DNA of 64,000 nt, from the NCBI GenBank assembly GCA_000091205.1, contig AP006501.2. The stretch is one strand, 5' to 3'. Origin of the DNA: Cyanidioschyzon merolae (taxonomy: Eukaryota). Under the pieces are notes generated by a model. It was not told the DNA's origin. It was given only the letters and a program-made list of their open reading frames with translations, and did no database searches. Every line of letters begins with the position of its first letter. Within the stretch, counting starts at the first letter, position 1. Positions 10,914 through 64,000 of this stretch are shown piece by piece. The position numbers and the translations under genes are program-made.

Positions 10914-12127
10914 ATGGTTGCCACCGACAAAGCCCGAGGCGTTGTACAGGCGGTTTCAGGCCCCGTAGTGGTTGCTCGCGACTGCCCAGCGTCCATGTAC
11001 GAACTGGTTCGCGTCGGACACGAACGCATCGTCGGTGAAGTGATTCGGCTCGAGGGCTCCTCGGTTACGATACAGTGCTATGAAGCCACCGACGCTTTGG
11101 CGGTAGGGGATCCCGTCGAGCGGACTGGTATGCCGCTGACAGTGGAACTCGGTCCTGGTTTAATGTCGAGCATATTTGATGGGATATCGCGGCCTCTGGA
11201 GAAGATTGCCACCCTCTCGGGGAGCGTGTTCATTCCCAGGGGCGTCGATGTGCCCTCTCTGGACCGGGAACGTCAATGGTACTTCGAACCGGACCCAGCG
11301 CTCTCTGTTGGTAGACTCGTCACCGGTGGTGACTGGATCGGAAGCGTCCAGGAGACCCCGCTTATCTTGCACCGGATCATGGTACCTCCGGGTACAATGG
11401 GCACCGTCGAATGGATCGCACCCAGTGGTTGGTATACCATCACAGACACGGTGCTGAAAGTGAGTCACCAGGGTGTCAGCAAGGCGCTGTCTATGATGCA
11501 GCGGTGGCCTGTGCGACAACCGCGACCCATCGCGGAGAAACTCGTCGCGAATACACCGCTGATCACAGGGCAGCGCGTTTTGGATACCCTGTTCCCGTGT
11601 GTTCAGGGCGGTACCTGTGCTGTGCCGGGTGCTTTTGGTGTTGGAAAAACCGTTATTAGTCAGGCACTGTCCAAATACTCGAACTCGGATGGAATCGTCT
11701 ACGTGGGATGCGGTGAGCGCGGTAACGAAATGGCAGAGGTTTTACGTGATTTCCCTGAGCTAACCATGTCGCTCGCGGACGGCGAGCAAGTGTCCATCAT
11801 GAACCGGACCCTGCTGGTAGCCAATACGTCGAACATGCCGGTAGCGGCCCGCGAGGCATCCATCTACACCGGTATAACAATTGCCGAGTACTATCGGGAC
11901 ATGGGACATGATATGTCCATGATGGCGGACAGCACGAGCCGCTGGGCAGAGGCGCTCAGGGAAATCAGTGGACGCCTAGCGGAGATGCCAGCGGATTCGG
12001 GGTTTCCGGCGTACCTGGCGGCACGTCTGGCTTCCTTCTATGAGCGCGCTGGGCGCGTCAAGTGTTTGGGCTCCCCTGAACGCACTGGTTCGGTGACCGT
12101 AGTGGGAGCTGTCTCGCCTCCTGGGGG
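10914..12127 (+). CDS. V-type proton ATPase catalytic subunit A, exon 1. It is joined to exon 2 across a 245-bp GT-AG intron spanning 12128..12372.
   Basis: N-terminus VSGPVVVA...MYELVRVGH...GEVIRLEG. Walker [40 protein letters not shown]. The exon ends ...GAVSPPG, with a g|gtaagt donor at 12128. Confidence 0.9.
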
Positions 12128-12372
12128 GTAAGTTTCTTCAACAAACAGGCATCGGGTATCTCCCGGTGGCGTGTATGCGATATGTCAGCCATCGGGTCGT
12201 CATTATTGGCGTTCGAGACGAGCGCTTGATGCCAGAGCAATCCGCCGTGGATTGTAGCGTGTCCCGGGCGGAGCGTCCGCAGCGGGGATCACCCGCTGCC
12301 CCAAATGCCGTCGGGGCGAAAGCCACCACGAGCAACATTCTTTATCAATGACAGAAACTAACCTGTGAATAG

Positions 12373-13009
12373 TGACTTTTCCGATCCTGTGACCACTGCG
12401 ACACTATCGACAGTTAGTGTGTTTTGGGGCCTCGACAAACGCCTGGCCAGCCGCAAGTTCTTCCCCGCAGTGAACACAAACATTTCGTGGAGCAAAAATA
12501 TTCAAGCGCTGGAACCATGGTACGATGCGCACTATCCGGAATTCCCATCGATTCGCCAGACCGTACGTCAGATTCTCCAAATGGAAGAGGATCTAAGCGA
12601 AATCGTCGCCCTCGTTGGCCGCGATGCCCTCGCCGAGAGCGACAAGGTCGTTCTCGCGGCAGCCACCATGATTCGGGAGGACTGCCTCCAACAGAACAGC
12701 TACACCTCCTACGACGCCTACTGCCCGTTCCTGAAAAGCATGCTCATGCTTCGAAATATCGTGCTGTGGTACGAGCTTGCCCAGAAGGCAGTCGCCGAAG
12801 TGGATCGCGACGCGGGCGCCACGAGCGCATCGAATCGTCTTACGTTTGCGGGGTTGCGCGATGTGCAAATGGACCTCCTTAATCGACTTTCGCGAATGAA
12901 ATTCCTTGAACCCAGCATGGGAGATGATGCGCTGCGTCGCCATTTAGACGCGCTGCGGGATGATATCGTCAAAAGCTTCCGCGAACGCGACTGGGCGCTG
13001 ACGGCATGA
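12373..13009 (+). CDS. V-type proton ATPase catalytic subunit A, exon 2.
   Basis: Acceptor ...gaatag| at 12371-12372. The exon resumes G-DFSDPVTTATLSTVSVFWGLDKRLASRKFFPAVN, exactly matching the conserved SPPGGDFSDPVT junction of V-ATPase A. Combined length is 617 aa. Confidence 0.9.
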
Positions 13010-49900: not shown

Positions 49901-50584
49901 CCGAGCACAGAGCTGGACGCGGTGAAAAAGTGGCTTGATTCCGTCAATATCCCCTTCTATCAGGGTCCATCGAATCTGAATTGGAACACGGTGCTGCGCA
50001 CCATTCGAGAAGACCTCGAGGGTTTCTACGAAGAGGGCGGTTGGCGTTTCCTGGACGCCGAAGCGTCGAGTTCTTCCTCTGAAGATGAGGATGAAGAGGA
50101 AGGAGACGACGCTGGTGCCGGCGCAAAAACACGTGCCTCCGCGACCAAGGCTAGCGCTGGCGGGGCCGCTGCGGATCTCTCCGATCAGGATGAAGAATAC
50201 GTTCCTAGCGACGAAGACTTTGAAGCGGAATCTTCCGAAAGCGACTATGACGAAGACGATGATGATGAATCTTTCGAGGCTGACGAGGAAGCAATTGACT
50301 TGGCCGAGGAACTCGGTGATGACGATGCAGGTGAAGCCGAGCTCAGTTCCTCTGACGAAGGCCTCGACTGGGACGAACTCGAACGCCGCACCAAGGAGGA
50401 AGAGCGACAGAAGCGCAAGCGATGGCACGACGACGACGATGACGACGAGGATGATAATGATGGTGATGACGATAACGAGAATGATGGCGATGCGCGACGT
50501 CGACGCCACGGACGCAAGCAGCGTGCCCGGGCGCCCTCCGGACAGACAGCGTTGACGCACGGGCCCAAGCGCGTACTTCGTTAG
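46961..50584 (+). CDS. SPT16: FACT complex subunit SPT16. ORF is open from 46907.
   Basis: N-terminal aminopeptidase-like domain, Spt16 middle and Rtt106-like domains. Colinear conserved blocks such as QLFVDMEREVVLAPITGIPVPFHIATIKNASKSDE...LRINF, PHLVDVSIRPSL....GVLEAHVNGLRF, IDIQFYTEVMD. Asp/Glu/Ser-rich acidic C-terminal tail. 1207 aa. Confidence 0.9.
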   Translation: MAAVGQAAASEAALRSPTANILFKGDLEARLARVGDAWLDASRTFDALFVYTGALAAGEPAGYRKSYALVMYILGVEAQQTALVLQHTDAASVLWIGTADAEIWAALETAAPALGLSAGHHEADRHQNGVEVNDDRSGASSTPKATLLRGNLGSDWFLVAAWIATKRDLEKTLAVAGVPARSSLNLGALVKERNVHQGDFAAKCTAYVFGDAAGSDVATPPPVNAAEWIGNLLIAKLPDEIQNIRKASYLCAKVCQAYFVERMESILDEDTPVSHDRLSEEVEARLLAPATVGVQLVASECEAAYPPIIQSGRDGPFDLRPSAISNEQNLSTGLVLASIGARYHQYCANVVRTFLIDVEKPIRSMYAKALQALEAVRRALRPEQEAWVAYNAAIQELGEELAAAHLAGKHVGFGIGLEFRDSTWLLNEQNHKILRSGMTFQIQVGLERLGENSTLALMVADTVLVGGADPEGAEVLTQAASKSPAKVTYFLDMDADEEADDGTVGNAGKNSEALASEQVAGEPSAPSIVTRRRAQQSSAPDDDDAAAEAERIRLHQQKLAEQKLRESRTRILGKSASSAGDQYSAEGKGFRALNAYRAYERVEDFPAGLRPRQLFVDMEREVVLAPITGIPVPFHIATIKNASKSDESGFTYLRINFLVPGTSASTASASGAGGLTAPAGVSGAAARLSLFPDNPGFVLKELSFRSASAANLSEVFRKIKELRKRFTSRETEAQEKETLVKQAPLILETDPRRIPHLVDVSIRPSLGAGGQRANQGVLEAHVNGLRFRSRQQRAVDILYRNVKHAFFQEARNEVIVLVHFRLHTPIMVGKRKTIDIQFYTEVMDATVRLADTRRNPFDIDEIEEEQRERENRHRLNKLFFKFTKEVEAKANEELEFDMPYRELGFEGAPDKMQRFLMPTRDCLVDLIEFPPVIISLEDIEVAHFERVTYSLKNFDLVLVMKNFAQEPSRGETQWIRISSVPSTELDAVKKWLDSVNIPFYQGPSNLNWNTVLRTIREDLEGFYEEGGWRFLDAEASSSSSEDEDEEEGDDAGAGAKTRASATKASAGGAAADLSDQDEEYVPSDEDFEAESSESDYDEDDDDESFEADEEAIDLAEELGDDDAGEAELSSSDEGLDWDELERRTKEEERQKRKRWHDDDDDDEDDNDGDDDNENDGDARRRRHGRKQRARAPSGQTALTHGPKRVLR

Positions 50585-50585
50585 C

Positions 50586-51575
50586 TCAATCAGAATCGTT
50601 CGCTGGCTCTAACTGTACTCCAAAGCACGTCTTCAACGAGTCAAAGAACATAAAGAATATGCCGGACGATACCGCTTCCCAGGTTGCGCGCGGCATGACG
50701 CCCCGGAAGAGTGCAGGGACACCACCCTCTCCGAGCAGCGCTCTGATCGCCTGCAAGACTGAGGTTGCGGGGCGGCCCGGCTGGGTGCCAGAGACCAGCA
50801 TGCGCGTACGCACCACGTCCAGCGGGGTGGTGATGACCCCAATGAGACCGCCGGCGCTCATACCCAGCAGAAGCAGTTCCCATTCGGCGAGTCTTTCGCG
50901 ACCTTGCACTCGCTGCGTGATCTGTTTGAATTGCTCGAACGTCCCAAACTCAAGGGCGTCGAACGGCAAGTTTCGCAAGAGATTCGACCCGTACCCAGTC
51001 CAGAGCGCCATAAGGCCGCCTTCATGAACCCAAAGGTGTCGCGCTGCTGCGACAATATTCGGCTGCAGGCATGACTGCACGCGCTGTTTGATCAACTCCG
51101 CAGGCGTATCGACGAGGCTGCTAACGATATTTGCCATAGCGGCTGCGGTGGTGGACTCCCAGAAGAGCCTCGGGCCCGCGTCCGAGTTCGCACGCAGACC
51201 CTGGTCATGATAATGAGACGCACCGGGGCGCGTTCGACGTAGCGTTCGACGCACCGACTCGTACGTGATCGCGAATAACGCTGCAGTTGGAAGTGAACCA
51301 ATCACGCCGGACAGGACACCGGCGTAGAGCTGGCGAAAACCGCGACCATCCGCCATACGACGTACGGCATGCTGGAATGCGCGTACTGGACCCAGCCAGT
51401 GCAGGCCCGAGGCAGATCGCCACGCCAGTGTCGAAGCAGCTGCAGCTGTTGCGTGGCGAGAGTGGATCAGCCGGCGGTGTGCCGTTGGCAGCTGCTGCGT
51501 CTGCTTGAGCGTGTCGAGTGGGTACAGGAGAAACTCAACTAGGGCCTCGGCGATAGCGCCAGCGCTCGCCTCCAT
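50586..51575 (-). CDS. Mitochondrial carrier family (SLC25) protein, possibly an S-adenosylmethionine-carrier-like member. ORF is open in frame to 51908.
   Basis: Three Mitochondrial carrier signature repeats (LYPLDTLKQ, VDTPAELIKQRVQ, PLDVVRTRM), six TM helices. ~329 aa from Met at 51575, matching family length. Confidence 0.8.
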   Translation of the reverse strand: MEASAGAIAEALVEFLLYPLDTLKQTQQLPTAHRRLIHSRHATAAAASTLAWRSASGLHWLGPVRAFQHAVRRMADGRGFRQLYAGVLSGVIGSLPTAALFAITYESVRRTLRRTRPGASHYHDQGLRANSDAGPRLFWESTTAAAMANIVSSLVDTPAELIKQRVQSCLQPNIVAAARHLWVHEGGLMALWTGYGSNLLRNLPFDALEFGTFEQFKQITQRVQGRERLAEWELLLLGMSAGGLIGVITTPLDVVRTRMLVSGTQPGRPATSVLQAIRALLGEGGVPALFRGVMPRATWEAVSSGIFFMFFDSLKTCFGVQLEPANDSD

Positions 51576-53034
51576 CAAGAGCCGTCGACCGAGCCCGAGC
51601 GGTGTTTTCTGCGCTGGTGTCGCGGGTGCGTGTGAGCTCGTTCGCGTATGTGCACTTGGACTCGCGCCCGAGTCGGCCGGCCGCTTTCGTCGGTCCGGTG
51701 GTGACGACGGCATCACAAGAGCGCGCTCTAACGACCAGATTGGCGTGTGCGCGCACCAGCGGGTTGACGACGTGGAGCTACGGCGTCGTAGCGGCTGCTG
51801 GCCTATCAAGGTATGCAACCACGGGCCGGGGGCAACGTCCGCGTCGAACGCCCAGCTGCCATTATGGCCGCTTCCCGGCGAGGCGACCTTTTCGCTCTCG
51901 AACAGCATGACAACGACGCAAGCACGACCGCGATAGGGTGCTTAGCTGGAGTTCGCACGAAACGCTCCTGGTTTTAAAAAAGCTCCACACTCGCATTACA
52001 TAATGACGCTAGAATCTGGTGCGTTTTGGTGTTGATCATGCCCCGCTTCCGTATCGTGAACAACATACGCTCGGCAGGGTAGAATGCAGCGTGGCTATGT
52101 TCGCCAGCCGCCGCACGCCAACGATAGCACACGTCCGCGCACGGGCAGTGCGCCTCGCGCAGCCAATCATCCGGTTGTCCGTTTCTACTATAAAGGTACA
52201 TTTCTTGGTAGTTATGACTGGTTACTGAATCGCCACCTCAATCAGCACGCATTCGACTTGTCGGGTCCGGGACGCGTGCGCGCTCCGGTGCAGGCGTGTG
52301 CCGGCGCATTCACCGCCACGTGCCTCCGCTTCGTGTGCATCCTGCGGCGTGCCTGGCGTTGGAGCTGCCTCCAGCCGCTGACACCAGTGCATACACGACC
52401 GAGGCAGAGTGTGTGTAGCGCGTCCGGGTCGCGCTGGCACTCCTTCGCGCACCAGGTGAGCTCGGCACTGCCGCCCGCACGCACCCGAACAACGTATGCA
52501 CGCGCGCTTACCCGGTACGGCCACACAGAGACGATGCGATGCATGTGCACGTAGCCACTAACGTCGCTATCGAGCAGGATGCAGCATGCATGCGCGTGCG
52601 CCGTCAGGCCGTTTCGCGGGAAACACGCATCCCATGGACACGTGTGTGTCACGGATACACGTAGCACGCATATCAACAGATGCATTGCTATCATTGTGCG
52701 TGTTCACGCACATGTGCTCGAATACGATTGGCGTTCTCGCACCTTTAGGCGCGAGTGTGCGCTCACTGACCGTCCGGGGTGTCTACATGGATCAGCATCC
52801 AATCGACACGGGTGGGCGGCGTTTCGCAGAGCGCTGCGTCCAGCGTCTGGGCGCATCATCACAGCATGGGGTGTGCAGCTCAGTGCGCGAGGTGGATGCG
52901 AAACCGCGCGCTGCGGTCGCGCGCTCACCAGGACTCGTAGTCGCACCATGCATGCTGTTTGCCAATGAGCAGCGCCCATGTACCTAACCGGAACGCAACG
53001 AACTGCTGCGATTAGCCGCGCACGGTGATCATCT

Positions 53035-56000
53035 CTACGGGAGGCGGGTGCGACGTGCCTTAAGCATGCGCCGCGGCGCCATGGTACCAGGAGCGTGCGC
53101 ATCGCCAAGGGCTTGCGTTGGTGCGAATCCAGGCGCTCCCAGCAACGGTGTCGCTGGCGGAGGCACGCCATTCGCCGCCGGGTCACTCGGAGCCAGCGAC
53201 GGCCACGGTAAGGACGCTGGCAACGGTGCGGCAGCGCCCGATGCGGGCCACGGTGATTGCAACGACGACACCGCTGGTGCCGAGACAGTCGGCGTCTGCA
53301 TCGGTGCACTGAGCGATGAGGTCGTCCACATTGATGTACCGTTCGTGCCTTGAGATGCCGATCCAAACCAGAAAGGTTCCGAATTGGTACTTGCTGTCGG
53401 TGCAGAGAACAACCAAGCGGGTGGTTTCGGCGGCGCGTTGCTAGCAGAAGCGGCGACCGTGGTATCAGTTGCGCCAGCCGCTGGTGGACCAAAGTGAAAC
53501 GTGCGCGCAGGAGCCGGTATCGCGAATGCTCCCTGTGAAATAGATGCCTTCGGTGCAGGGGCCGCGGTTGCGGGCACCTGTTGCGATGCCCCACTTGTGT
53601 CCTGCGATTGCAGGGGCGTCTTCTGGGGTGATTCCCCAAGCGCGGCACCAGCTGTGTCAACGGTTTGTATGGACTGCGTTTCTGTGGAATTCGGCTTCCG
53701 GGATGCGGTTCCGTCGCTGACGGGCGCTGCCGATGTCTCAGCCGCGGATTTGGTTTCGTACGCCGCCTTTTGCGGCATCGCCATCTCAGAGGCTGATTCC
53801 TGCTGCTCTTGCCCAGTACTGCCAGGCGGAGCGTGCATCCGTGGTACGTCATCGGGCGACGCTGACGCCAGCGTATTCGGCTTCGGGTCTGCTGGTGCGC
53901 CGGAGCACTGCGCGATCTCATCGTGTTCGTGCGGCAGTTCTGTCTGCACAAATCCCGCGAGCGATGTCTTTGCGATTTCCGACGACGACGGCGCAACGTC
54001 CAATGACCCTGATGCTGTTGGAGCAGGCGCTGCCGCATTCGGTGGTGCTATGTGTACGGAGGAGTCTGTAGATTCCTGTCGCGACGCTGATTCGCTCGAC
54101 ACCGGCACCGTCGAAGGCTGCACAGTCGTATCAACAGGCACGTACCCGGTTCTTTGAGTAGAGCCGGCTGTGGACAGTGATGGCGGTCGCCAAGGTTCCG
54201 GAATACGCGGCAACGCGATCTCGAGAGGGCGCATGCGCGGTGGCAGCGTCGGCAATGTCGGTGCGTCGGGACTGGAACCCTTCGACAACGTTGTCTCTGC
54301 AGCGTCGGCATGGAGCTGGGCTTCTGGTGACGCTTGTTGCGCGTGCTCTCCATGCTCTGGTAGCGACACCGTTCGTTGCACTTGGAGTTCATCATCGCCG
54401 AGTTTTGACGGGACTATTCGCCGCATGGCTTCGAGTTGCATGTCCCTGGCACCACCAGCCGCAGCACCAAATACGGTCGCAGATTTTGACCTGGCCTGCT
54501 GCTCAGCATCTCCTGTAGGTGGCAATGAAACAGCACCAGCATCCCGCGTAGTTGGCGCTGTGGTGTCATGCGTACCAGTGGCGGCGAGGTCCACTGCAGC
54601 AGCACTTGCATGCTGATCGGCCTTCAGCGGTGGTGTTCGCAAATGCATGTCTTGTTCGGCAGTGAGAGACGACGAGATGTTCGCGTCATCAGCGGAAACA
54701 TCCATCGAAAGCGTACGGCGCTTATTCCGAGCCGCCACTGTTTGCGCAGCACGGTCCAATGCGACGTCCAGCTCAGTACTATGGTCTATGGTGAAACCGC
54801 GATTGCTAGTCACGTCGGATGCAGCGGTTGCTGCTGCGGGTGTTCGCTTCCCAGGTGTTATGCAAGTGTCGCGCTCCCGCTCCGGCTGATCGCGAATCCT
54901 CTTCAGCGATTCGATGAGTTGATATAGGCGGCTCGTTGGAGCTCCAGCGCCATCACCATCTTTGCGGATGTCTGCTCGGGCTCGCTGACCATCGCGCCCA
55001 TTTTGATGCCTATCGGAACGCGTACCCGTCACGATAAGGTTAGCGTCTGATCGGCGCCGTTTCGCCGCACTCATCCGCAGTGCAGGCGATCCATCGAACG
55101 TCCAGACGGCATCTAAACTGCGGTTCTGCACGCTGTGCGCCTGGGATGGCACTGATCCGCTGCCCAGGGATCCAGACGGTAGCGCGCCAGCGCTCTGCTC
55201 GAACACGCCAATGGGGCTGGTTCGCTTCGCGGATGTCGCATTGCTTGTTCGCGTTCGCCCATGCGGGACGTCTCGCAGCGGAAGTGTCGTGAGCGGTACC
55301 GCAGGCAACTTCACGTGACGGACGTCTGCTCTATTTCGCAACCAGCCATCACTTCTGTCGTCGATAGCGCTCATTCCTGACCGCTCTAATTCGCGTCCAA
55401 GAAGGCTCGTCGATAACCTAGGATCCAGGTGCTCCTGCTGGTAGCTCTCTGGATGCGCGCAAAGCGTACTGTAGTGCTGCCTCTCGAGTGAAGCGTGCAA
55501 CGACGACGATCGAGCTCTGTAGGTGTCCAGCATCGACGACGACAGGCGTTCGGTGCTATGCTGTGTGAAACGTGCCTCTAGTCGCGACGCACCAGCGACG
55601 AAATCCGACTCGGTCGGTGTCCATGGCGACAGGCGGCGGAAATCGGAACCGCTTGGACGTACCGAGTACATGGTGCTGGTCGGTGTCGCGGCAGGGGCAT
55701 CCATAATACGCCGATGCGGCACGATCCCCAATGCAGACGGCCGTATCTTTGGTGCTGGCGGCAGGTCGGCCAAATTTCGGATGAGCGACTGCTCCTGCGC
55801 AGGAGATCCCCCTTTTGATGCCTGAATCGCAACGCCCATCGATCGCGTCTCTGTTCGCTGCCTGAACGTCCGAATGACATCGTAGCTGGTCACGAGCGAT
55901 GCCTGCCGGGTGCTACGCTCTGGTGCTCGCGAATCGTTCGCGGGTTGCGCTCCGTAAACCCGTGTCGTAGGGGATTCGGTGTGGGTCGCGGTGGTGGCTG

Positions 56001-57825
56001 CGGCGCGTTCATGTCGTGAGGTGCTATCCAGGTTCGTCAAGAGCTGGGTCGGGGCTAGACTCTCGTGCGGCTGCGATACAGCCGTCCGCTGCTCTGGCAA
56101 ACGCGCTGTCGGCACTGGCCCTGAAGAACAGGCGATCGCGGGAGCCAGCGAATCCGCAACATCGCGTGCCAGTGCGGTCGAGGTTGCGCGAGATGACGCA
56201 TCCGGAACCTGTTGCGTCGTGCCCGAGAGCACGGAATCCCGGGAATGCTGCGCTTCACTGGCGTACTGGTCACTTTCGGAGCGAGTGGGATCTCCAGTGT
56301 CCATCAGGAGGCTATCTTGCCTCTGGACGACTCCATCCTTCAGAGGCAACGCTTTCGAGTCGTTCGCATATTCGAGCTGCGTCTCTTGCTTGTGCGGCGT
56401 GTGTTTTGAAGCATCCTCGCACTCACGGGCCGAGTCTGCCGAAGCGGATACAGTCGCTGTTTCGCCGACCATGCGCGTACGCTGCACCGTCCCATTAGAC
56501 GCATCTCCATCTGATGATGCACTCGAATAGCGTCCACGATGTTCTCGTGAATCTGTTCTCGAGGACTGCAAGCCATTGGGAGATCCATGTTCAAGACTAG
56601 TCGACGCGGCAGGGGATCTGCTGCTCCCGCGCCAGAGACGCCACCATCTCGACAATGACATCTGGAGTCGTCCGAGCCACCCGTGCGCACCTCGAATCCT
56701 GAGCATAGCTCCAAGCGTCAAGTCTTCCCGTGAATTTGCGCAAAGCTCCTGTGCCTCCATCGAGCTCAGGGCTCGCGCGATGGCCCGGGTTTCGACGGCC
56801 ACTGCCCTGCTGGATTGCTTCCGTACGCCACCGTCGTGCTGTTTCGGTTTCGTCGCTCGCTGTACAGCTCTTGTGGTGCCTTTTTTACCAGGCACACTGT
56901 CCCGATTCATAACATGAGCTGTTCCTGTTCGCCTCTGTACGGGATGCGAGCGTCTGCCTGTCTGGCGTCCATGGACAACACCCGTCCCGGTCGTGGTCTG
57001 GTCATGCGCCTCGCGCACTGCATACAAGTGAGAATGTTCGTCCGATGAGGAGACGCTCCGCTGAGGCGATGCCTCCTCCTGATGATGACGCTCCCGCGGC
57101 AACGACTCCATTCCGGACGGCAAGTGCACGGACGCTGTGGCGCTGGGCACGCTCGAGCGCCCGCGTGGCGCTCGCTGCTGTGAGCCCCTGCCCGGAGACT
57201 CCGACTCGAGCGCACCTTGATTCGATGAACTCTGGACATATGTCGCTATATGATCGCTAGACTGGCGTTGTGCACTTGTGGAAACCGTTGATCGAGGCGT
57301 CTGCTCCGTCGCTCGGCAAGCAAGGGCAGCAGCTCTGCGCACCTGAGACCGCGTGAGTGGGCCATTCTCGTTCGAAAAGCTCGCTGTTGCACGCTTCTGA
57401 CCAGGAGCAAGTTCGTAGCCGGCCTCAACCGTCACACTTAGCCTTCGCACCGGGGTTTCGTGCTCGGGTCGCACGGGCGTGTCGGACGGAGTACCTGCGA
57501 GTCCTCCGTGTGGCTCCTGCACAGCTACTGGCGAACTCTCCGCTGACTGGTCTCTCCTTGAAAGGGTAGTGTCGCTACGCTCCCCAGCTGACTTTCTTCG
57601 AGCGGCTGATGTCTTGCGACTAGACTTCGTCTTCAAAGGCACGTCCGTCTCTACGGAGTGAGACGGCGTCCGCGTACTCGTCGACCTACTGGAACGCCGT
57701 CGGGGGGTCCGTCGTCGCGGGCTTGTCCTCCAACGGGCTTCGATGCGGGATCCTTCCGGCAAGTCATAGTTGCCGTGTCGCGTGCTTACCATACCAGCTG
57801 TCAGTGGACGCCTTGAGCGCACCAA
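53035..57825 (-). CDS. Hypothetical very large (1596 aa) intrinsically disordered Ser/Thr/Pro/Ala/Arg-rich protein. The N-terminus is RS-dipeptide-rich. The C-terminus is Pro/Ala-rich with sparse FG motifs.
   Basis: 4.8-kb uninterrupted ORF. Such length is very unlikely by chance even at this GC content. No globular domain recognised. A second frame (52704..54038) is also open over the 3-prime part because of compositional bias. Confidence 0.5.
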   Translation of the reverse strand: MVRSRRPLTAGMVSTRHGNYDLPEGSRIEARWRTSPRRRTPRRRSSRSTSTRTPSHSVETDVPLKTKSSRKTSAARRKSAGERSDTTLSRRDQSAESSPVAVQEPHGGLAGTPSDTPVRPEHETPVRRLSVTVEAGYELAPGQKRATASFSNENGPLTRSQVRRAAALACRATEQTPRSTVSTSAQRQSSDHIATYVQSSSNQGALESESPGRGSQQRAPRGRSSVPSATASVHLPSGMESLPRERHHQEEASPQRSVSSSDEHSHLYAVREAHDQTTTGTGVVHGRQTGRRSHPVQRRTGTAHVMNRDSVPGKKGTTRAVQRATKPKQHDGGVRKQSSRAVAVETRAIARALSSMEAQELCANSREDLTLGAMLRIRGAHGWLGRLQMSLSRWWRLWRGSSRSPAASTSLEHGSPNGLQSSRTDSREHRGRYSSASSDGDASNGTVQRTRMVGETATVSASADSARECEDASKHTPHKQETQLEYANDSKALPLKDGVVQRQDSLLMDTGDPTRSESDQYASEAQHSRDSVLSGTTQQVPDASSRATSTALARDVADSLAPAIACSSGPVPTARLPEQRTAVSQPHESLAPTQLLTNLDSTSRHERAAATTATHTESPTTRVYGAQPANDSRAPERSTRQASLVTSYDVIRTFRQRTETRSMGVAIQASKGGSPAQEQSLIRNLADLPPAPKIRPSALGIVPHRRIMDAPAATPTSTMYSVRPSGSDFRRLSPWTPTESDFVAGASRLEARFTQHSTERLSSSMLDTYRARSSSLHASLERQHYSTLCAHPESYQQEHLDPRLSTSLLGRELERSGMSAIDDRSDGWLRNRADVRHVKLPAVPLTTLPLRDVPHGRTRTSNATSAKRTSPIGVFEQSAGALPSGSLGSGSVPSQAHSVQNRSLDAVWTFDGSPALRMSAAKRRRSDANLIVTGTRSDRHQNGRDGQRARADIRKDGDGAGAPTSRLYQLIESLKRIRDQPERERDTCITPGKRTPAAATAASDVTSNRGFTIDHSTELDVALDRAAQTVAARNKRRTLSMDVSADDANISSSLTAEQDMHLRTPPLKADQHASAAAVDLAATGTHDTTAPTTRDAGAVSLPPTGDAEQQARSKSATVFGAAAGGARDMQLEAMRRIVPSKLGDDELQVQRTVSLPEHGEHAQQASPEAQLHADAAETTLSKGSSPDAPTLPTLPPRMRPLEIALPRIPEPWRPPSLSTAGSTQRTGYVPVDTTVQPSTVPVSSESASRQESTDSSVHIAPPNAAAPAPTASGSLDVAPSSSEIAKTSLAGFVQTELPHEHDEIAQCSGAPADPKPNTLASASPDDVPRMHAPPGSTGQEQQESASEMAMPQKAAYETKSAAETSAAPVSDGTASRKPNSTETQSIQTVDTAGAALGESPQKTPLQSQDTSGASQQVPATAAPAPKASISQGAFAIPAPARTFHFGPPAAGATDTTVAASASNAPPKPPAWLFSAPTASTNSEPFWFGSASQGTNGTSMWTTSSLSAPMQTPTVSAPAVSSLQSPWPASGAAAPLPASLPWPSLAPSDPAANGVPPPATPLLGAPGFAPTQALGDAHAPGTMAPRRMLKARRTRLP

Positions 57826-60456
57826 GGGCTTTCAAGGCGTACGCAATGGTCGAAAACGCTTCTACGAGGTTCGTGCTGATCGCGCCAAGCCTCTGAGATC
57901 CGCTTGGTCCAGACCCGTGCTGGATCCTAGTCGGACACTGAGCTGCTTGATCTGCGCTTGCCTAGAAACTTTTTCACGAGTTTTTATACATGTCCAGCGT
58001 TAACATTCTAAATGCAGTTGTAGGGGCCCAGGGATTCATAAACACTTTTGCGATTGCCCGTTCATCTTTTCGGAATGGCTCACTCGACGCCGTCTGCCCG
58101 GTGGAATTCGTTGCGTCACCGATATCAAGACCATTCAAGACGTCCTCGAACAAGGTTTCTTGATGTAACCGATATCGTTTTCCAACGCATACGTAGAAGC
58201 GTCAAATTCGTTTCTGTCAAGCTAGCCTGTTGACGTCGTGCGTTCTTCTAGTTTTCCACGTTTCTGTTTCGAGGCAACTCGTGGGCGCAGCTGTTCGCGC
58301 TCCTGAATTGACGAGAAAAAGACTTGACGTCGACCATTGATGAATTGTTCACGAGTTCACGCAGAAATTTTTCCCAAAATCTTCACGTCGAATAATCAAT
58401 TCCTTTCGAAAGAAAACCCCTTATCTTATCACGGCCATCGATGCAACCGCATTCCACAAAAGCACGATGCTGCTCACCTGGGATCGTACACCAGACGATC
58501 ATACCGCTTCGGATTGCATGGTAAATGGCCGCGGATTCGGACTCGAGTCATTGCAGTGATCGTCCGGATTGGACAGATGTCAATGCTTTGCACGAGGGAA
58601 GCGTAGATGGATCGTAATTTATCGATACGCTCCGTCTTCTCAATTCACCACTCTGTGCTTGTCTCATCACGAGTGATATAGCGGCGCTCAAATCTTCCTC
58701 TGTTCTGGAGAAAGGCAGATGACATGGGACTCGTTATCTTTTACATTCGAACGAATTCTCCACGGTTCAACCCGGTCGAGTAGTTCGGGGCCTTGAAAAA
58801 CAGCTCCCGAGAAGCAAATGTCGGATTTGGATATCTTGGATCTGCCTCGACACGAACTGGTACTCGAGACTTGTGGCGCCGCAGTGGCGGCCATCTGACT
58901 CGCAGGGGCTACTTGCGCAAAAATTGTTTCCCTATTCGGATAGGGGATTCTTGCAGGGGCCGTAAGAAACGGGAAGACCACACAGTCAAGAATAAATATG
59001 CTTTGCCTGTTGCTCATCGGAGGAACACGCCCGAAGCGCGCCAGGTATGGCAGAGAGACCATCATGCAAGTGCAAACCGATATCCTGGCGCGTTTCCAGT
59101 GTAGTTGCGTGCCGCTCCCGGAGAACCTCGCTATTCTCGGATGGAACGCCCTCCTGGAAGAAGGTCATCGCTTGGACATCGTCTCGGATGAGAAGCTCTG
59201 TTTAACGCTGTTGCACGACGCATCGATTGTAGAGAGAAACCCGAGAATACACATACACTTGCCGGAACGCAAAGCCCGCATCCCAAAAATACGCACTGCT
59301 CTGTAGCAAGCTGAACAACGAGGTTACTTCACGCGTAACCTCCTGCTCTTTCTGTGTATCGTTGAGCTTTGGAACCTGTATGCGATCATTCAATCTCTGC
59401 TGTTTGCTCTTTTTCCGAATACAAGAGCATCTGTGGCGCGCGTTGTCGCCAGATAAGGAATACGCAGCGGAAAGAGACCCCAGTCTGGCGAACAAGTACC
59501 GCAATTTGGATCCGTCTACGCTCCATTCATGCAAAGTTCTGAGGGAATCTCCAATGAAAACGATCGCCGTGGTGACTCAAGTCCCAGCCCAAAGCCGTTT
59601 CTAATGCAAACAACGACTACGGGAGCCAATGGGAACGTATCCCGTGCGAGGCAACACGCTGCTGTCGAATGCTCTTTCGCCGATGCCCACAAAGAGAGGC
59701 GGATGTGACTTGCGAACGAAGTCGATTCTTTGGTGTAACAAGTTTGGTGCAATTTTGGCATGAACTCGTGAGGAACTCGGCAATGGTCGGCACTGAGCTT
59801 CTTTCGCTCGTCAGAATGCCGGCCGGAATTGCTGCACCTGCCACTTGCCCCGAGACGAAAACAACGCATCTAGGAAGCATGCGTGATTGAAGCCTGCCTT
59901 CCGCAAGAAAACGAATCGAATGCCAATGCATACGCATTTGCGAATGATATCGCTTATGGTACGAACCGTTCTTCGAGCGCGTCACGCATCATGTTGATTC
60001 CAGTGAGGTACCGAATTCAAGTGTCATAGATTCAACGATGCCGTTTCGCAAAAACAACCGAGAACCTTTATACTACGTCTGCACCCGTAACCTCGTATTG
60101 TTGCCCTGTGCTTGTCGAGACTGGACGTCTGAAAAATGATCCGAAAATGAGTCATACGGCAGGGAGCGTATGAGCTGTTCCGTGGACCATTCGATTCGGA
60201 GAGCGCATTTACGCGGTGGATGCGGCAGCCGTGAGTCTTTGCCTTTTAGAACAATAGGAGCACAAGCGGACATGAGCCTGGGCGCAACGCCCCGAGCCGC
60301 CGCCTGCGGGATCCGCGGCGGCGGGAACGTCCGCTTTCGGAAAGCGCGGGAACACGGCGACCTCGAACGACGAAGCGGCTAGCGCGCACAGCCAGCACAC
60401 GACAAGCCGCACTGCATTGTTCCGCAAGTGCACACACTCCTACGACGTTCGGAAAT

Positions 60457-61680
60457 ATGACGGGGGCACTGCGGTATCGAGCACTGGCTCGAGTCATAGA
60501 ACGCTGTCTGGGCTCGCGTGCGCTCGGCGAGAGCGGCTCAGCAGCTGCAGTCAGCAACTATGTCTGGCAGCGCGAAGCATCACGGGGTTTCGTGTTAGGG
60601 ACGCGCCTGCTGCCGTGGTGCCCGCTAGGGTCGCGTTTACTGCACAGTCCATCACAGACAGCGTCAGTTATCAGGATGAATACCGGTTCGTTTGCACCTA
60701 AACCCGATTTGGGTGAACAACAACCAAACACTCTGACGGGGCAGCCACGTATCATGGTCGTTGGGGTTGGCGGCGCCGGTGGAAACGCAGTCAACAACAT
60801 GATCGCGTCTTCACTGCCCGGGGTCGAGTTCCTCGTCGCGAATACAGACGCACAAGCGCTGAAAATGAGCTTATGTCCTAACCGTATCCAGTTAGGTGCA
60901 AGCCTAACTGAGGGGCTCGGCGCGGGCGCTCGACCCGATATTGGACGAGCCGCAGCAGAGGAAGCGTATGAGACGCTCAAGCGAGAGTTCCGAGGCGTAC
61001 ACTTACTGTTCGTCACTGCCGGCATGGGTGGGGGCACCGGCACTGGCGCTGCGCCCATCATTGCACGAGCAGCCGCAGAGCTCGGTTGCCTGACGGTTGC
61101 CGTCGTCACGAAACCGTTCCATTTTGAGGGCATGATCCGAATGAAAACAGCCGAGCAAGGCATCGTCGAGCTCACAGAACATGTCGATACGATGCTGGTC
61201 ATCCCGAACCAGAATCTCTTCAAAGTCGCCTCGCCGCGCACTAGCTTCCTGGATGCATTCCGCCTCGCCGATCACGTGCTCTACTCTGGTGTTCGTTCGA
61301 TTACAGACCTGATGACGGTACCAGGCCTGATCAATTTGGATTTCGCTGATGTTCGCAGTGTTGTTAGGGAAATGGGACGAGCCATGATGGGATCCGGTGA
61401 GGTCGAGATGGAGGCCGGCAACGAAGAACGCGCCATTCGCGCGAGTGAAGCGGCTATCTGTAACCCGCTGCTCGACGAGACCTCCTTACGCGGCGCTCGC
61501 GGGGTGCTTGTGAACATTACCGGTGGTACGGACATGACGCTTTTTGAGATAGATGCTGCAGCGAATCGAATTCGAGAACAGGTCGATCCCGATGCGAACA
61601 TTATTTTCGGATCGGCTTTCGATGCTTCGATGCAGGGGAGGCTTCGCGTCAGTGTTCTCGCGACCGGCATTCCATCCTGA
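60457..61680 (+). CDS. ftsZ: FtsZ, alpha-proteobacterial/mitochondrial type, with a ~95-aa N-terminal presequence.
   Basis: Tubulin/FtsZ GTPase motifs [33 protein letters not shown]...[14 protein letters not shown] matches the alpha-proteobacterial/mt-FtsZ pattern (plastid FtsZ has ...NTDIQAL / GVEFW). The Arg/Ser/Leu-rich N-terminal extension is compatible with mitochondrial targeting. Confidence 0.88.
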
Positions 61681-62584
61681 TAGGGTGCAAATTTCGAACA
61701 GGCCGACGACTGCTGAACGCGCTCACTTTGGGAACGTGATTCAGATCGTGCGGCGCTGGCGGCAGCAGATGCTCGTCACCTGTCGATATTACCCGATGAC
61801 GTCATATAGCATGCCGAACAGGTGCGCGATGCGGCTGCCACGCCTTGTCGCCACCGGCGTCTGCTCTGGACTGCTATCTTGCGACTGTCCACAGGCATGT
61901 GTTGTTGCTCAGTGCATACGCATCCCGTTGTTCTGTATCCGGCGTGTCGGTGGCGCAATCGACGCTCATCAGGCGCAGCGCTGGCAACAGGTGGACTTGC
62001 GTGGGCCGCACCCAGTTGTTCGGACAAGTCGCAACATGTGCGCAAATCGAGCGGGCGACATGAAACACCCCCGATCTAGACATTGACCTGTGCATAGAGG
62101 GCAACTATGGCTTCAACCGTGTTCATAGCATTCATCGCATATCTTTGTTTTACCCAATTCACGTTGTGTTTCTCTAAATACTTCACGTATCGCCACAGCA
62201 CCTGCAGTTCTCCCGGAGCATGATCGATCCGACAGGCAAAACGGATGACACGTTTGAGCGGCACCCGCTGCGTCTGCGTCATCTTTGAAAACTATGTGCA
62301 ACGGGCTGGGTGCGCATTGACGCCCAGTTGAGTTCGGACGCGCCACAGCACCGCCGTTTCATCACCTCTACCGTGAAGGCGGCGTCACCGCTTTCAGCTG
62401 GCTATTTCGGTAACACAGTCGATCTTTATATGATACATACAGCGTCGCTAGCGCATACAATCGCCCGTAACGCTGCCCGTTGATGCAGCATGCGGGCACC
62501 ATGCTACCTCGGTCAGCTACGAGCGCGCTCGACTCAAGGAGTACGTGGCGCGCCCCGGACATTCGGCGCATCGATCCAAGCGCA

Positions 62585-64000
62585 TCAGAACCTGAACAAG
62601 GGTAGTGAACTATCCACTTCGTTCCAGTTCTTGCTCTCGAACAGATCCTGAACTGTGCGACGTTTGGGCTGGGGTTGGAAAACCTGCGCCGTCCACGTAC
62701 CGTGCAGTCCCATGGGAAGAAACGTTCGTAGGGGCACTTTGCAAACGAGCTTGAGATCCGAGGCATCAAGAATGACCAAGTATGTGCTCCGATGCAACCC
62801 GTCACTGACCACACTGAGTATGTAACCGTCATCTTCCGCTGATTCCTTATCAGGTTCGATCAAGCGGGGCGCAAAAACTGGTTCCCCAGCGAATTCGTAG
62901 ACCGATGGCGGTTGCCACGTAGCTAGCGTCTGGCCGGTGTCGGCGTCGACCTTGATGATGTTCTTGAGAGGGCCTGGCTCCGTGCCAAGTGCGCTTGCCC
63001 CCATGTACACATAGCGATACGGCTGCGTAAGGCGGCTCGGGTTCACCACCGGAAAGTCAACGTGCGTCGTATTCACCTCACGCCAGGTTGCGCGCTGCGT
63101 TCCGCTGCCGCTGCGAGTCGGTATGCGACAGCGCCAAAGGCTGCACTTGGGAACTTGGGTCCCAAAATCGACTGCCTCCACGACACGCTGCGTGCGCGAC
63201 AATCCGTTTCGATGGCGACGAGTCTCTCCCAGGAACAACCGATCCATTCGACAAGCGTCAAGAACAACAGCGTCGTCGTCGTCGTCGTCGTAGGCGTTCA
63301 CAAAATGGAACGCTGTGCAGGTCTCACTCAGAACCTCACGCACAGGTGCACCCGGGTCGTCGCGAGGTATCAGCAGCAAACGCGTCGGCATTCGATCCCC
63401 TTCCCAGGTAATACACTCTCCTGGACACTTGAGTCCGAGCACGAAAGGAAGCGGATGGAAGCGCAGTGGCGCCTGCAGCAAAATATAGTAACGCTGCGTG
63501 ATCATAAAATCGTGGAAGAAACCAAATCCATCAATGTCCACCGTTCGTTCCGAGCATAGCTTCCAATTCTCTGATGCGAATTCCAAAAACCGGATCCGTA
63601 ACCCATTCAAATGCATCCGAGAGGAGAACCCCACGAGGCGTCCCCGGCGAAGTGGATCGACGTGCGGGTGTGCGGTGAACATCGGCATGGGGCCGGTGAG
63701 CGTCCCCCCGAGCCTGAAGACGCCCTTCGTTTCGAGCGTATCAGGGCGCAGCTCATAGGGCAGGCCGCCTTCGTACAAGGCAAGCAACTGGTTCGCGTGG
63801 TAGATCACGTTTGTGTTGGCGAGATTCTTTTGCTCAAGGCGGAACGCGTTGGTCACGATTCCACCCGGCAGCGGTGTAGCAAAAGTGCCGCGGTAGAGCT
63901 GATAGCCGGCGCGACGCTCTTTTAAGTAGCCCTCTGTTCGAACAAAACGATTGCGGAACCATACTGTTCCGTCTCCGCGCAGCGTGAACGCTGCAACGGC
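62585..64000 (-). CDS. Carotenoid cleavage dioxygenase (RPE65/CCD family), partial at its 5-prime end; it continues beyond the window edge. The ORF track starts it at a GTG at 63856, but the frame is open to 64000.
   Basis: Upstream in-frame translation GTVWFRNRFVRTEGY...AGYQLYRG...VTNAFRLEQKNLANTNVIYHANQLLALYEGGLPYEL is typical of the CCD N-terminal blades. Conserved His-containing blades follow (FTAHP, HDFMIT, FHFVNA) and a C-terminal propeller with acidic residues. An internal poly-Asp (DDDDDD) is encoded by (CGT)7 at 63271-63291. Confidence 0.8.
   Translation of the reverse strand, partial: AVAAFTLRGDGTVWFRNRFVRTEGYLKERRAGYQLYRGTFATPLPGGIVTNAFRLEQKNLANTNVIYHANQLLALYEGGLPYELRPDTLETKGVFRLGGTLTGPMPMFTAHPHVDPLRRGRLVGFSSRMHLNGLRIRFLEFASENWKLCSERTVDIDGFGFFHDFMITQRYYILLQAPLRFHPLPFVLGLKCPGECITWEGDRMPTRLLLIPRDDPGAPVREVLSETCTAFHFVNAYDDDDDDAVVLDACRMDRLFLGETRRHRNGLSRTQRVVEAVDFGTQVPKCSLWRCRIPTRSGSGTQRATWREVNTTHVDFPVVNPSRLTQPYRYVYMGASALGTEPGPLKNIIKVDADTGQTLATWQPPSVYEFAGEPVFAPRLIEPDKESAEDDGYILSVVSDGLHRSTYLVILDASDLKLVCKVPLRTFLPMGLHGTWTAQVFQPQPKRRTVQDLFESKNWNEVDSSLPLFRF

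Follow-up and report, generated by a model that had tools for sequence, protein, structure and literature searches.

Animals, fungi, and plants lack mitochondrial FtsZ, and the main experimental system for this protein is the red alga Cyanidioschyzon merolae. Mitochondrial FtsZ is found in red algae and glaucophytes, in stramenopiles and haptophytes, and in amoebozoans; opisthokonts, green algae, and land plants have lost it (PMC4164004). The mitochondrial FtsZs of amoebozoans, glaucophytes, stramenopiles, and haptophytes (Kiefel et al. 2006, as cited in PMC4164004) are, by their published description, of the same kind as the protein analyzed here: nucleus-encoded, mitochondrion-targeted, and retained from the endosymbiont. 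The mitochondrion-targeted FtsZ was duplicated into mtFtsZA and mtFtsZB (PMC8504449). CmFtsZ1-1 of C. merolae was published by Takahara et al. 2000, as cited in PMC7432047, and is described in the reviews PMC7432047 and PMC8504449, which refer to Takahara 2001 and Nishida 2003, as forming a matrix-side mitochondrial ring where the organelle divides. The mitochondrion-dividing machinery of this alga consists of three rings, named after FtsZ, MD, and dynamin; the first of them is built from FtsZ1 of the alphaproteobacterial type and requires ZED, which resembles ZapA.

The canonical FtsZ features a core, a linker of variable sequence, and a conserved C-terminal peptide of the form D-[IL]-P-x-F-L-[RK]. 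The T7 loop gives the catalytic Asp to the neighboring subunit in the filament, and the C-terminal peptide binds membrane tethers and regulators. The plastid FtsZA and FtsZB, with the FtsZB of C. merolae and Galdieria sulphuraria as examples, are likewise nucleus-encoded organellar FtsZs with a long N-terminal targeting extension, and the tail-less FtsZB occurs beside a tailed FtsZA.

The stretch of DNA analyzed here (the window; 64,000 nucleotides) carries on the plus strand, at 60457–61680, an intronless ORF of 407 codons plus stop. The original prediction of an FtsZ ORF at this position was exact from ATG to stop, and all motifs it had cited are present in the translation. A longer N-terminus is ruled out because no start codon lies between an in-frame upstream stop and the ATG at 60457. 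The protein starts with an N-terminal extension (residues 1–97; 60457–60747), which consists of a putative mitochondrial presequence and a poorly conserved spacer, as judged by composition and divergence. The Tubulin/FtsZ GTPase domain follows (residues 98–258; 60748–61230; Pfam PF00091, E 2.3e-47, 162 bits at a cut-off of 33), and the core is completed by FtsZ_C (residues 307–405; 61375–61671; Pfam PF12327, E 2.8e-33, 114.5 bits at a cut-off of 27). The tubulin signature GGGTGTG of the nucleotide-binding T4 loop (residues 191–197; 61027–61047) aligns identically with FtsZ chain 8h1o_A, and the T7 or synergy loop NLDFAD (residues 293–298; 61333–61350) is aligned to NVDFAD of the same chain. 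The protein thus has both FtsZ motifs, GGGTG[ST]G and the T7 pattern N-x-D-x-x-D, and scores 388 bits with the NCBIfam equivalog TIGR00065 (ftsZ; cut-off 295), which places it within FtsZ. The top match among solved structures is a gammaproteobacterial FtsZ (E 5e-96), in which both GGGTGTG and N-x-D-F-A-D of the T7 loop are aligned.

The window protein is identical at 407 of 407 residues to the protein annotated as mitochondrial division protein FtsZ1-1 of C. merolae strain 10D (BAM82940.1 / XP_005538976.1 / BAA85115.1). In a search of a large protein collection, it falls into a 407-aa cluster at approximately 100% identity, the representative of which differs solely by G27S in the extension. 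Four JGI metagenome contigs (L001–L004) are 99.2 to 99.5% identical in DNA to window positions 50457–64000 over 13.5 kb, that is, 0.5 to 0.8% different. From the identity of the protein and of these contigs, it follows that the window stems from C. merolae 10D or a near-identical strain. Hence, the ORF is almost certainly the nuclear ftsZ1-1 gene of this organism, with an ancestry in the alphaproteobacterial endosymbiont that became the mitochondrion. Compared with CmFtsZ1-1 of strain 10D, there is no difference at the protein level, and the contigs bearing CmFtsZ1-1 show the same genomic neighbors. The use of mitochondrial FtsZ as a taxonomic marker for the contig, as had been proposed, was sound and resolves to a cyanidiophycean red alga. 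ftsZ1-1 is, however, a known gene—its phylogeny, its localization, and its partner ZED are all published—which the original prediction had missed. The four JGI contigs represent natural populations very close to strain 10D, with G27S as one variant in the FtsZ presequence.

After C. merolae, the closest proteins in the large collection are those of Cyanidiococcus yangmingshanensis (78%, with the extension covered too) and Cyanidium caldarium (76%). The next ones are FtsZs with 67 to 71% identity over the core that are alphaproteobacterial wherever the source gives a class, from Rhodovibrio, Kiloniellaceae, Geminicoccaceae, Azospirillum, Dongia, Inquilinus, Tistlia, and Pelagibius. Among the best 120 matches, all named bacterial proteins with a class-level name are alphaproteobacterial, save two MAG bin labels, and there is no cyanobacterial or plastid protein. 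The window protein shares a discriminating 10-residue signature with its alphaproteobacterial matches, whereas cyanobacteria and plastids have GGGxNAVNRM instead. The alphaproteobacterial FtsZs (Rhodovibrio sodomensis, Kiloniellaceae, Geminicoccaceae, Azospirillum) also have the GTPase and T7 motifs in common with it. One of the matches, an alphaproteobacterial-type FtsZ (P0004 from ENA, 665 aa), carries an internal tandem duplication of approximately 130 core residues, in which GARRMRLAEAGITELTK... occurs twice; this is probably an artefact of metagenome assembly.

For the comparison with plastid FtsZ, sequences were taken from supplementary file 1 of PMC11285052: four cyanobacterial FtsZs, the red-algal plastid FtsZA and FtsZB—including the FtsZA and FtsZB of C. 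merolae itself—and three FtsZ1 of the green lineage. These were aligned with the window protein and three of its orthologues from Cyanidiophyceae, with ten of the named alphaproteobacterial matches, and with the gammaproteobacterial chain of the solved-structure match. Over the 315 core columns that aligned well, the window protein is 67 to 70% identical to alphaproteobacteria, 53% to the gammaproteobacterium, 51 to 54% to cyanobacteria, and 47 to 52% to plastid FtsZ, with 49 to 51% to the FtsZA and FtsZB of C. merolae. The neighbor-joining tree of these columns (Kimura distance, 500 bootstraps) joins the window protein, its cyanidiophycean orthologues, and the alphaproteobacteria with 100% support and, on the other side of the split, cyanobacteria and plastids, including FtsZA and FtsZB of C. 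merolae, with 100% support; since its alphaproteobacteria were picked from the best matches and other bacteria are represented by one gammaproteobacterium, with other phyla absent, it tests the alphaproteobacterial against the cyanobacterial or plastid origin well rather than the exact bacterial sister group. The cyanidiophycean orthologues form a clade with 100% support, and the window protein is grouped with cyanobacteria and plastids in 0 of 500 bootstraps. The predicted alphaproteobacterial or mitochondrial flavor of the core, as opposed to a cyanobacterial or plastid one, is thus borne out by protein search, core identities, and phylogeny.

These values also bear on a different reading of the gene, namely as a plastid-targeted FtsZ of cyanobacterial descent (FtsZA/FtsZB type), the extension of which would be a plastid transit peptide. 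Nucleus-encoded plastid FtsZ does exist in red algae, transit peptides and mitochondrial presequences are alike in composition, and the lack of a tail is shared with plastid FtsZB. However, the plastid proteins differ in their cyanobacterial ancestry, in their lower identity, in their position in the tree, and in the organelle they serve, and the identical protein has been annotated and published as mitochondrial. A plastid-type FtsZ is ruled out at sequence level by the tree and the identities, and we regard this reading as extremely improbable.

The mitochondrial ftsZ1-1 lies in a nuclear context, as had been predicted from its eukaryotic flanks. The neighbors in the window and in the gene-bearing contigs encode SPT16 (FACT), a mitochondrial carrier (Mito_carr), eIF3h, a protein kinase, a Ras-family GTPase, an Hsp70-family protein, and an M1 aminopeptidase. 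The gene of the V-type ATPase subunit A (10914–13009, plus strand) is split by a 245-nt GT-AG intron at 12128–12372, whose donor is GTAAGT and whose branch site, CTAAC, is placed approximately 11 nt before the AG; its splicing restores VSPPGG directly followed by DFSDPVT. Introns are rare in the C. merolae genome, with 27 reported (PMC2646357). The GC content of the FtsZ gene matches that of the remaining window. The local order—a large ORF without Pfam match (minus strand), FtsZ (plus), an RPE65-family oxygenase (minus), and an AI-2E-family transporter (plus)—is kept in a Cyanidiococcus-like contig of 676 kb (L005) and in Cyanidium caldarium GCA_026184775.1 (L006).

With approximately 70% identity of the core to FtsZ of free-living alphaproteobacteria, one could suspect an alphaproteobacterial contaminant or a recent horizontal insertion that is not organellar. 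Yet the gene is located between SPT16, the mitochondrial carrier, and RPE65 on one contig, this order recurs in two further genera as well as in the four metagenome contigs, and the chimeric assembly that contamination would need is excluded by these independent contigs. Moreover, alphaproteobacterial FtsZs have 15 to 16 residues before the core and tails of 108 to 337 aa, whereas the window protein has its 97-aa extension and no tail, and its orthologues belong to the fully supported cyanidiophycean clade. The eukaryotic neighbors, the intron, the GC content, and the conserved gene order exclude a bacterial contaminant; the probability left to it is negligible, lower still than that of a plastid FtsZ.

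The surroundings of the gene have further features. The large ORF upstream of FtsZ (53035–57825, minus strand) encodes 1596 aa without a Pfam match; it lies in the part of the window with the highest GC content (0.60 to 0.62) and has a strong negative AT skew. L005 and L006 each have a large protein without Pfam match in a similar place upstream of FtsZ, with 1566 aa (incomplete at the locus end) and 1305 aa, respectively, and the 1596-aa ORF is a conserved neighbor of FtsZ. The approximately 2.6 kb between this ORF and FtsZ (58000–60456) has a GC content of 0.50, which is below that of the remaining window, and contains only short overlapping ORFs; the same interval in the metagenome contigs holds only small ORFs without Pfam matches. 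The RPE65/carotenoid-oxygenase-family gene (62585–64000, minus strand) crosses the right edge of the window, so that the 423-aa ORF is its 3′ part, and measures 612 aa in related contigs. A stop or frameshift as the reason for the shorter length was rejected since the frame is open up to the edge: The difference is solely an effect of the window end. Scans of the window for tRNAs and Rfam families gave no matches.

The N-terminal extension of ftsZ1-1 differs from the core in composition. It has a net charge of +6, the core one of −8, and Asp and Glu make up 5.1% of it compared with 11.3% of the core. The original prediction described an Arg/Ser-rich extension of approximately 95 aa; the length is close to the 97 aa found, but the richness is only moderate, with 10.3% each of Arg and Ser against 7.1% and 5.2% in the core. 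An amphipathic helix with a hydrophobic moment of 0.89 is located at residues 7–18. Across genera, the extension is 14 to 30% identical and the core 76 to 93%, and the extensions of all orthologues carry a net positive charge (+5 to +18). Rapid divergence with retention of positive charge is, as far as sequence goes, the behavior of a targeting peptide. A presequence, as had been proposed, is therefore retained as putative and composition-based: The extension has a basic character and few acidic residues, evolves fast in comparison with the conserved core, and contains the helix at residues 7–18. The assignment uses simple composition and the hydrophobic moment together with the published localization, as such properties alone do not separate mitochondrial from plastid targeting.

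The C-terminus, on which the original prediction was silent, differs from that of canonical FtsZ. The window protein ends two residues past the core (…ATGIPS, then stop) and thus features neither a linker nor a C-terminal peptide. Of its ten alphaproteobacterial relatives, nine have tails of 139 to 337 aa that end in a DIPAFLR-type peptide—mostly DIPAFLRRQAN—and the tenth, a partial sequence, has a 108-aa tail without such an ending. Cyanobacterial FtsZ and plastid FtsZA terminate in peptides of the (D)IPDFL or IPEFL type. The cyanidiophycean orthologues of Cyanidiococcus and Cyanidium all stop one to three residues from the core, and plastid FtsZB stops one to two residues after it. A downstream exon with linker and peptide was considered and rejected, since no DIPxFL-like motif is present in the 420 nt past the stop translated in three frames and all orthologues stop at the same place. 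FtsZ1-1 is therefore a tail-less kind of organellar FtsZ, the architecture of which is paralleled by plastid FtsZB. In 2004, Miyagishima et al. reportedly described one of the two mitochondrial FtsZs of C. merolae as lacking the C-terminal variable domain, and we infer that FtsZ1-1 is this protein.

Such a C-terminus could also mark a decaying relic, that is, a C-terminally truncated FtsZ without division function, because the missing linker and peptide are needed by canonical FtsZ for membrane tethering. Against this, the ORF is intact, the GTP-binding and T7 motifs are unchanged, and the truncated architecture is common to every cyanidiophycean orthologue. Compared with Cyanidiococcus, the core is 92 to 93% identical and the extension 28 to 30%, a contrast indicative of strong purifying selection acting on the former. 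In addition, cell-cycle-regulated expression and ring formation have been published, and the published work on ZED and FtsZ1 points the other way. Decay is thus highly improbable—about as much so as a plastid FtsZ—and a functional tail-less mitochondrial FtsZ is the preferred reading.

As such a functional protein, FtsZ1-1 would be synthesized in the cytosol with a basic amphipathic presequence and then be imported into the mitochondrial matrix, the import being predicted from the extension and the matrix localization being published. Its intact GTPase core (GGGTGTG, NLDFAD) would polymerize head to tail with GTP, and the filaments would be arranged into a ring on the matrix face of the inner membrane, where division is to take place. 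According to the literature, formation of the FtsZ ring is the first step of mitochondrial division and needs ZED; the glucan MD ring follows it, as does the recruitment of Mda1 and Dnm1 to the outer side. The notion that mitochondrial division is FtsZ-based here agrees with the publication of the identical protein as the former of a matrix-side mitochondrial ring. Mitochondrial MinC, MinD, and MinE are not known from red algae. Because of the lack of linker and C-terminal peptide, the usual bacterial mode of membrane anchoring or regulator binding via the peptide is not open to FtsZ1-1. For tethering, it may instead depend on ZED, on co-assembly with its paralogue FtsZ1-2, or on both. Such a reliance would parallel the tail-less plastid FtsZB alongside the tailed FtsZA.

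The region upstream of the gene contains two E2F-like GCGGGAA motifs on the plus strand (60321–60327 and 60346–60352) that are located at −136 and −111 from the ATG, 25 bp apart, and form a candidate cell-cycle promoter element. GCGGGAA has 16 matches in the 64 kb on both strands, compared with 9.6 expected. The motif is found on the same strand at −102 in L005 (about 5899) and at −93 in L006 (about 5908). Hence, GCGGGAA(C) with a preceding A-rich run is located 93 to 136 bp before the FtsZ ATG in three cyanidiophycean genera, while the surrounding upstream sequence has diverged. The genes with S or G2-M induction in synchronized C. merolae cultures include ftsZ1-1 (PMC2646357), and an RB-E2F-DP module has been described as the driver of S-phase gene transcription in this alga. 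The upstream element may underlie the S/G2-M induction of ftsZ1-1, so that the periodic transcription, which is published, may be mediated by this conserved element. We tentatively suggest, with somewhat less than even confidence, that GCGGGAA(C) could be an E2F-DP site through which the RB-E2F G1/S switch would directly govern how the mitochondrial Z-ring protein is expressed.

Since the gene has already been published and experimentally characterized, its recovery here adds no new biology. It demonstrates that the type of an organellar FtsZ is recognizable from raw sequence, and it fixes a red alga of the Cyanidiophyceae as the origin of the window. As a molecular relic, mitochondrial FtsZ was handed down directly from the alphaproteobacterium that gave rise to mitochondria. 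If the proposed role of the upstream element is true, a cell-cycle factor of the host would time the division of an endosymbiont-derived organelle via the ftsZ1-1 promoter.
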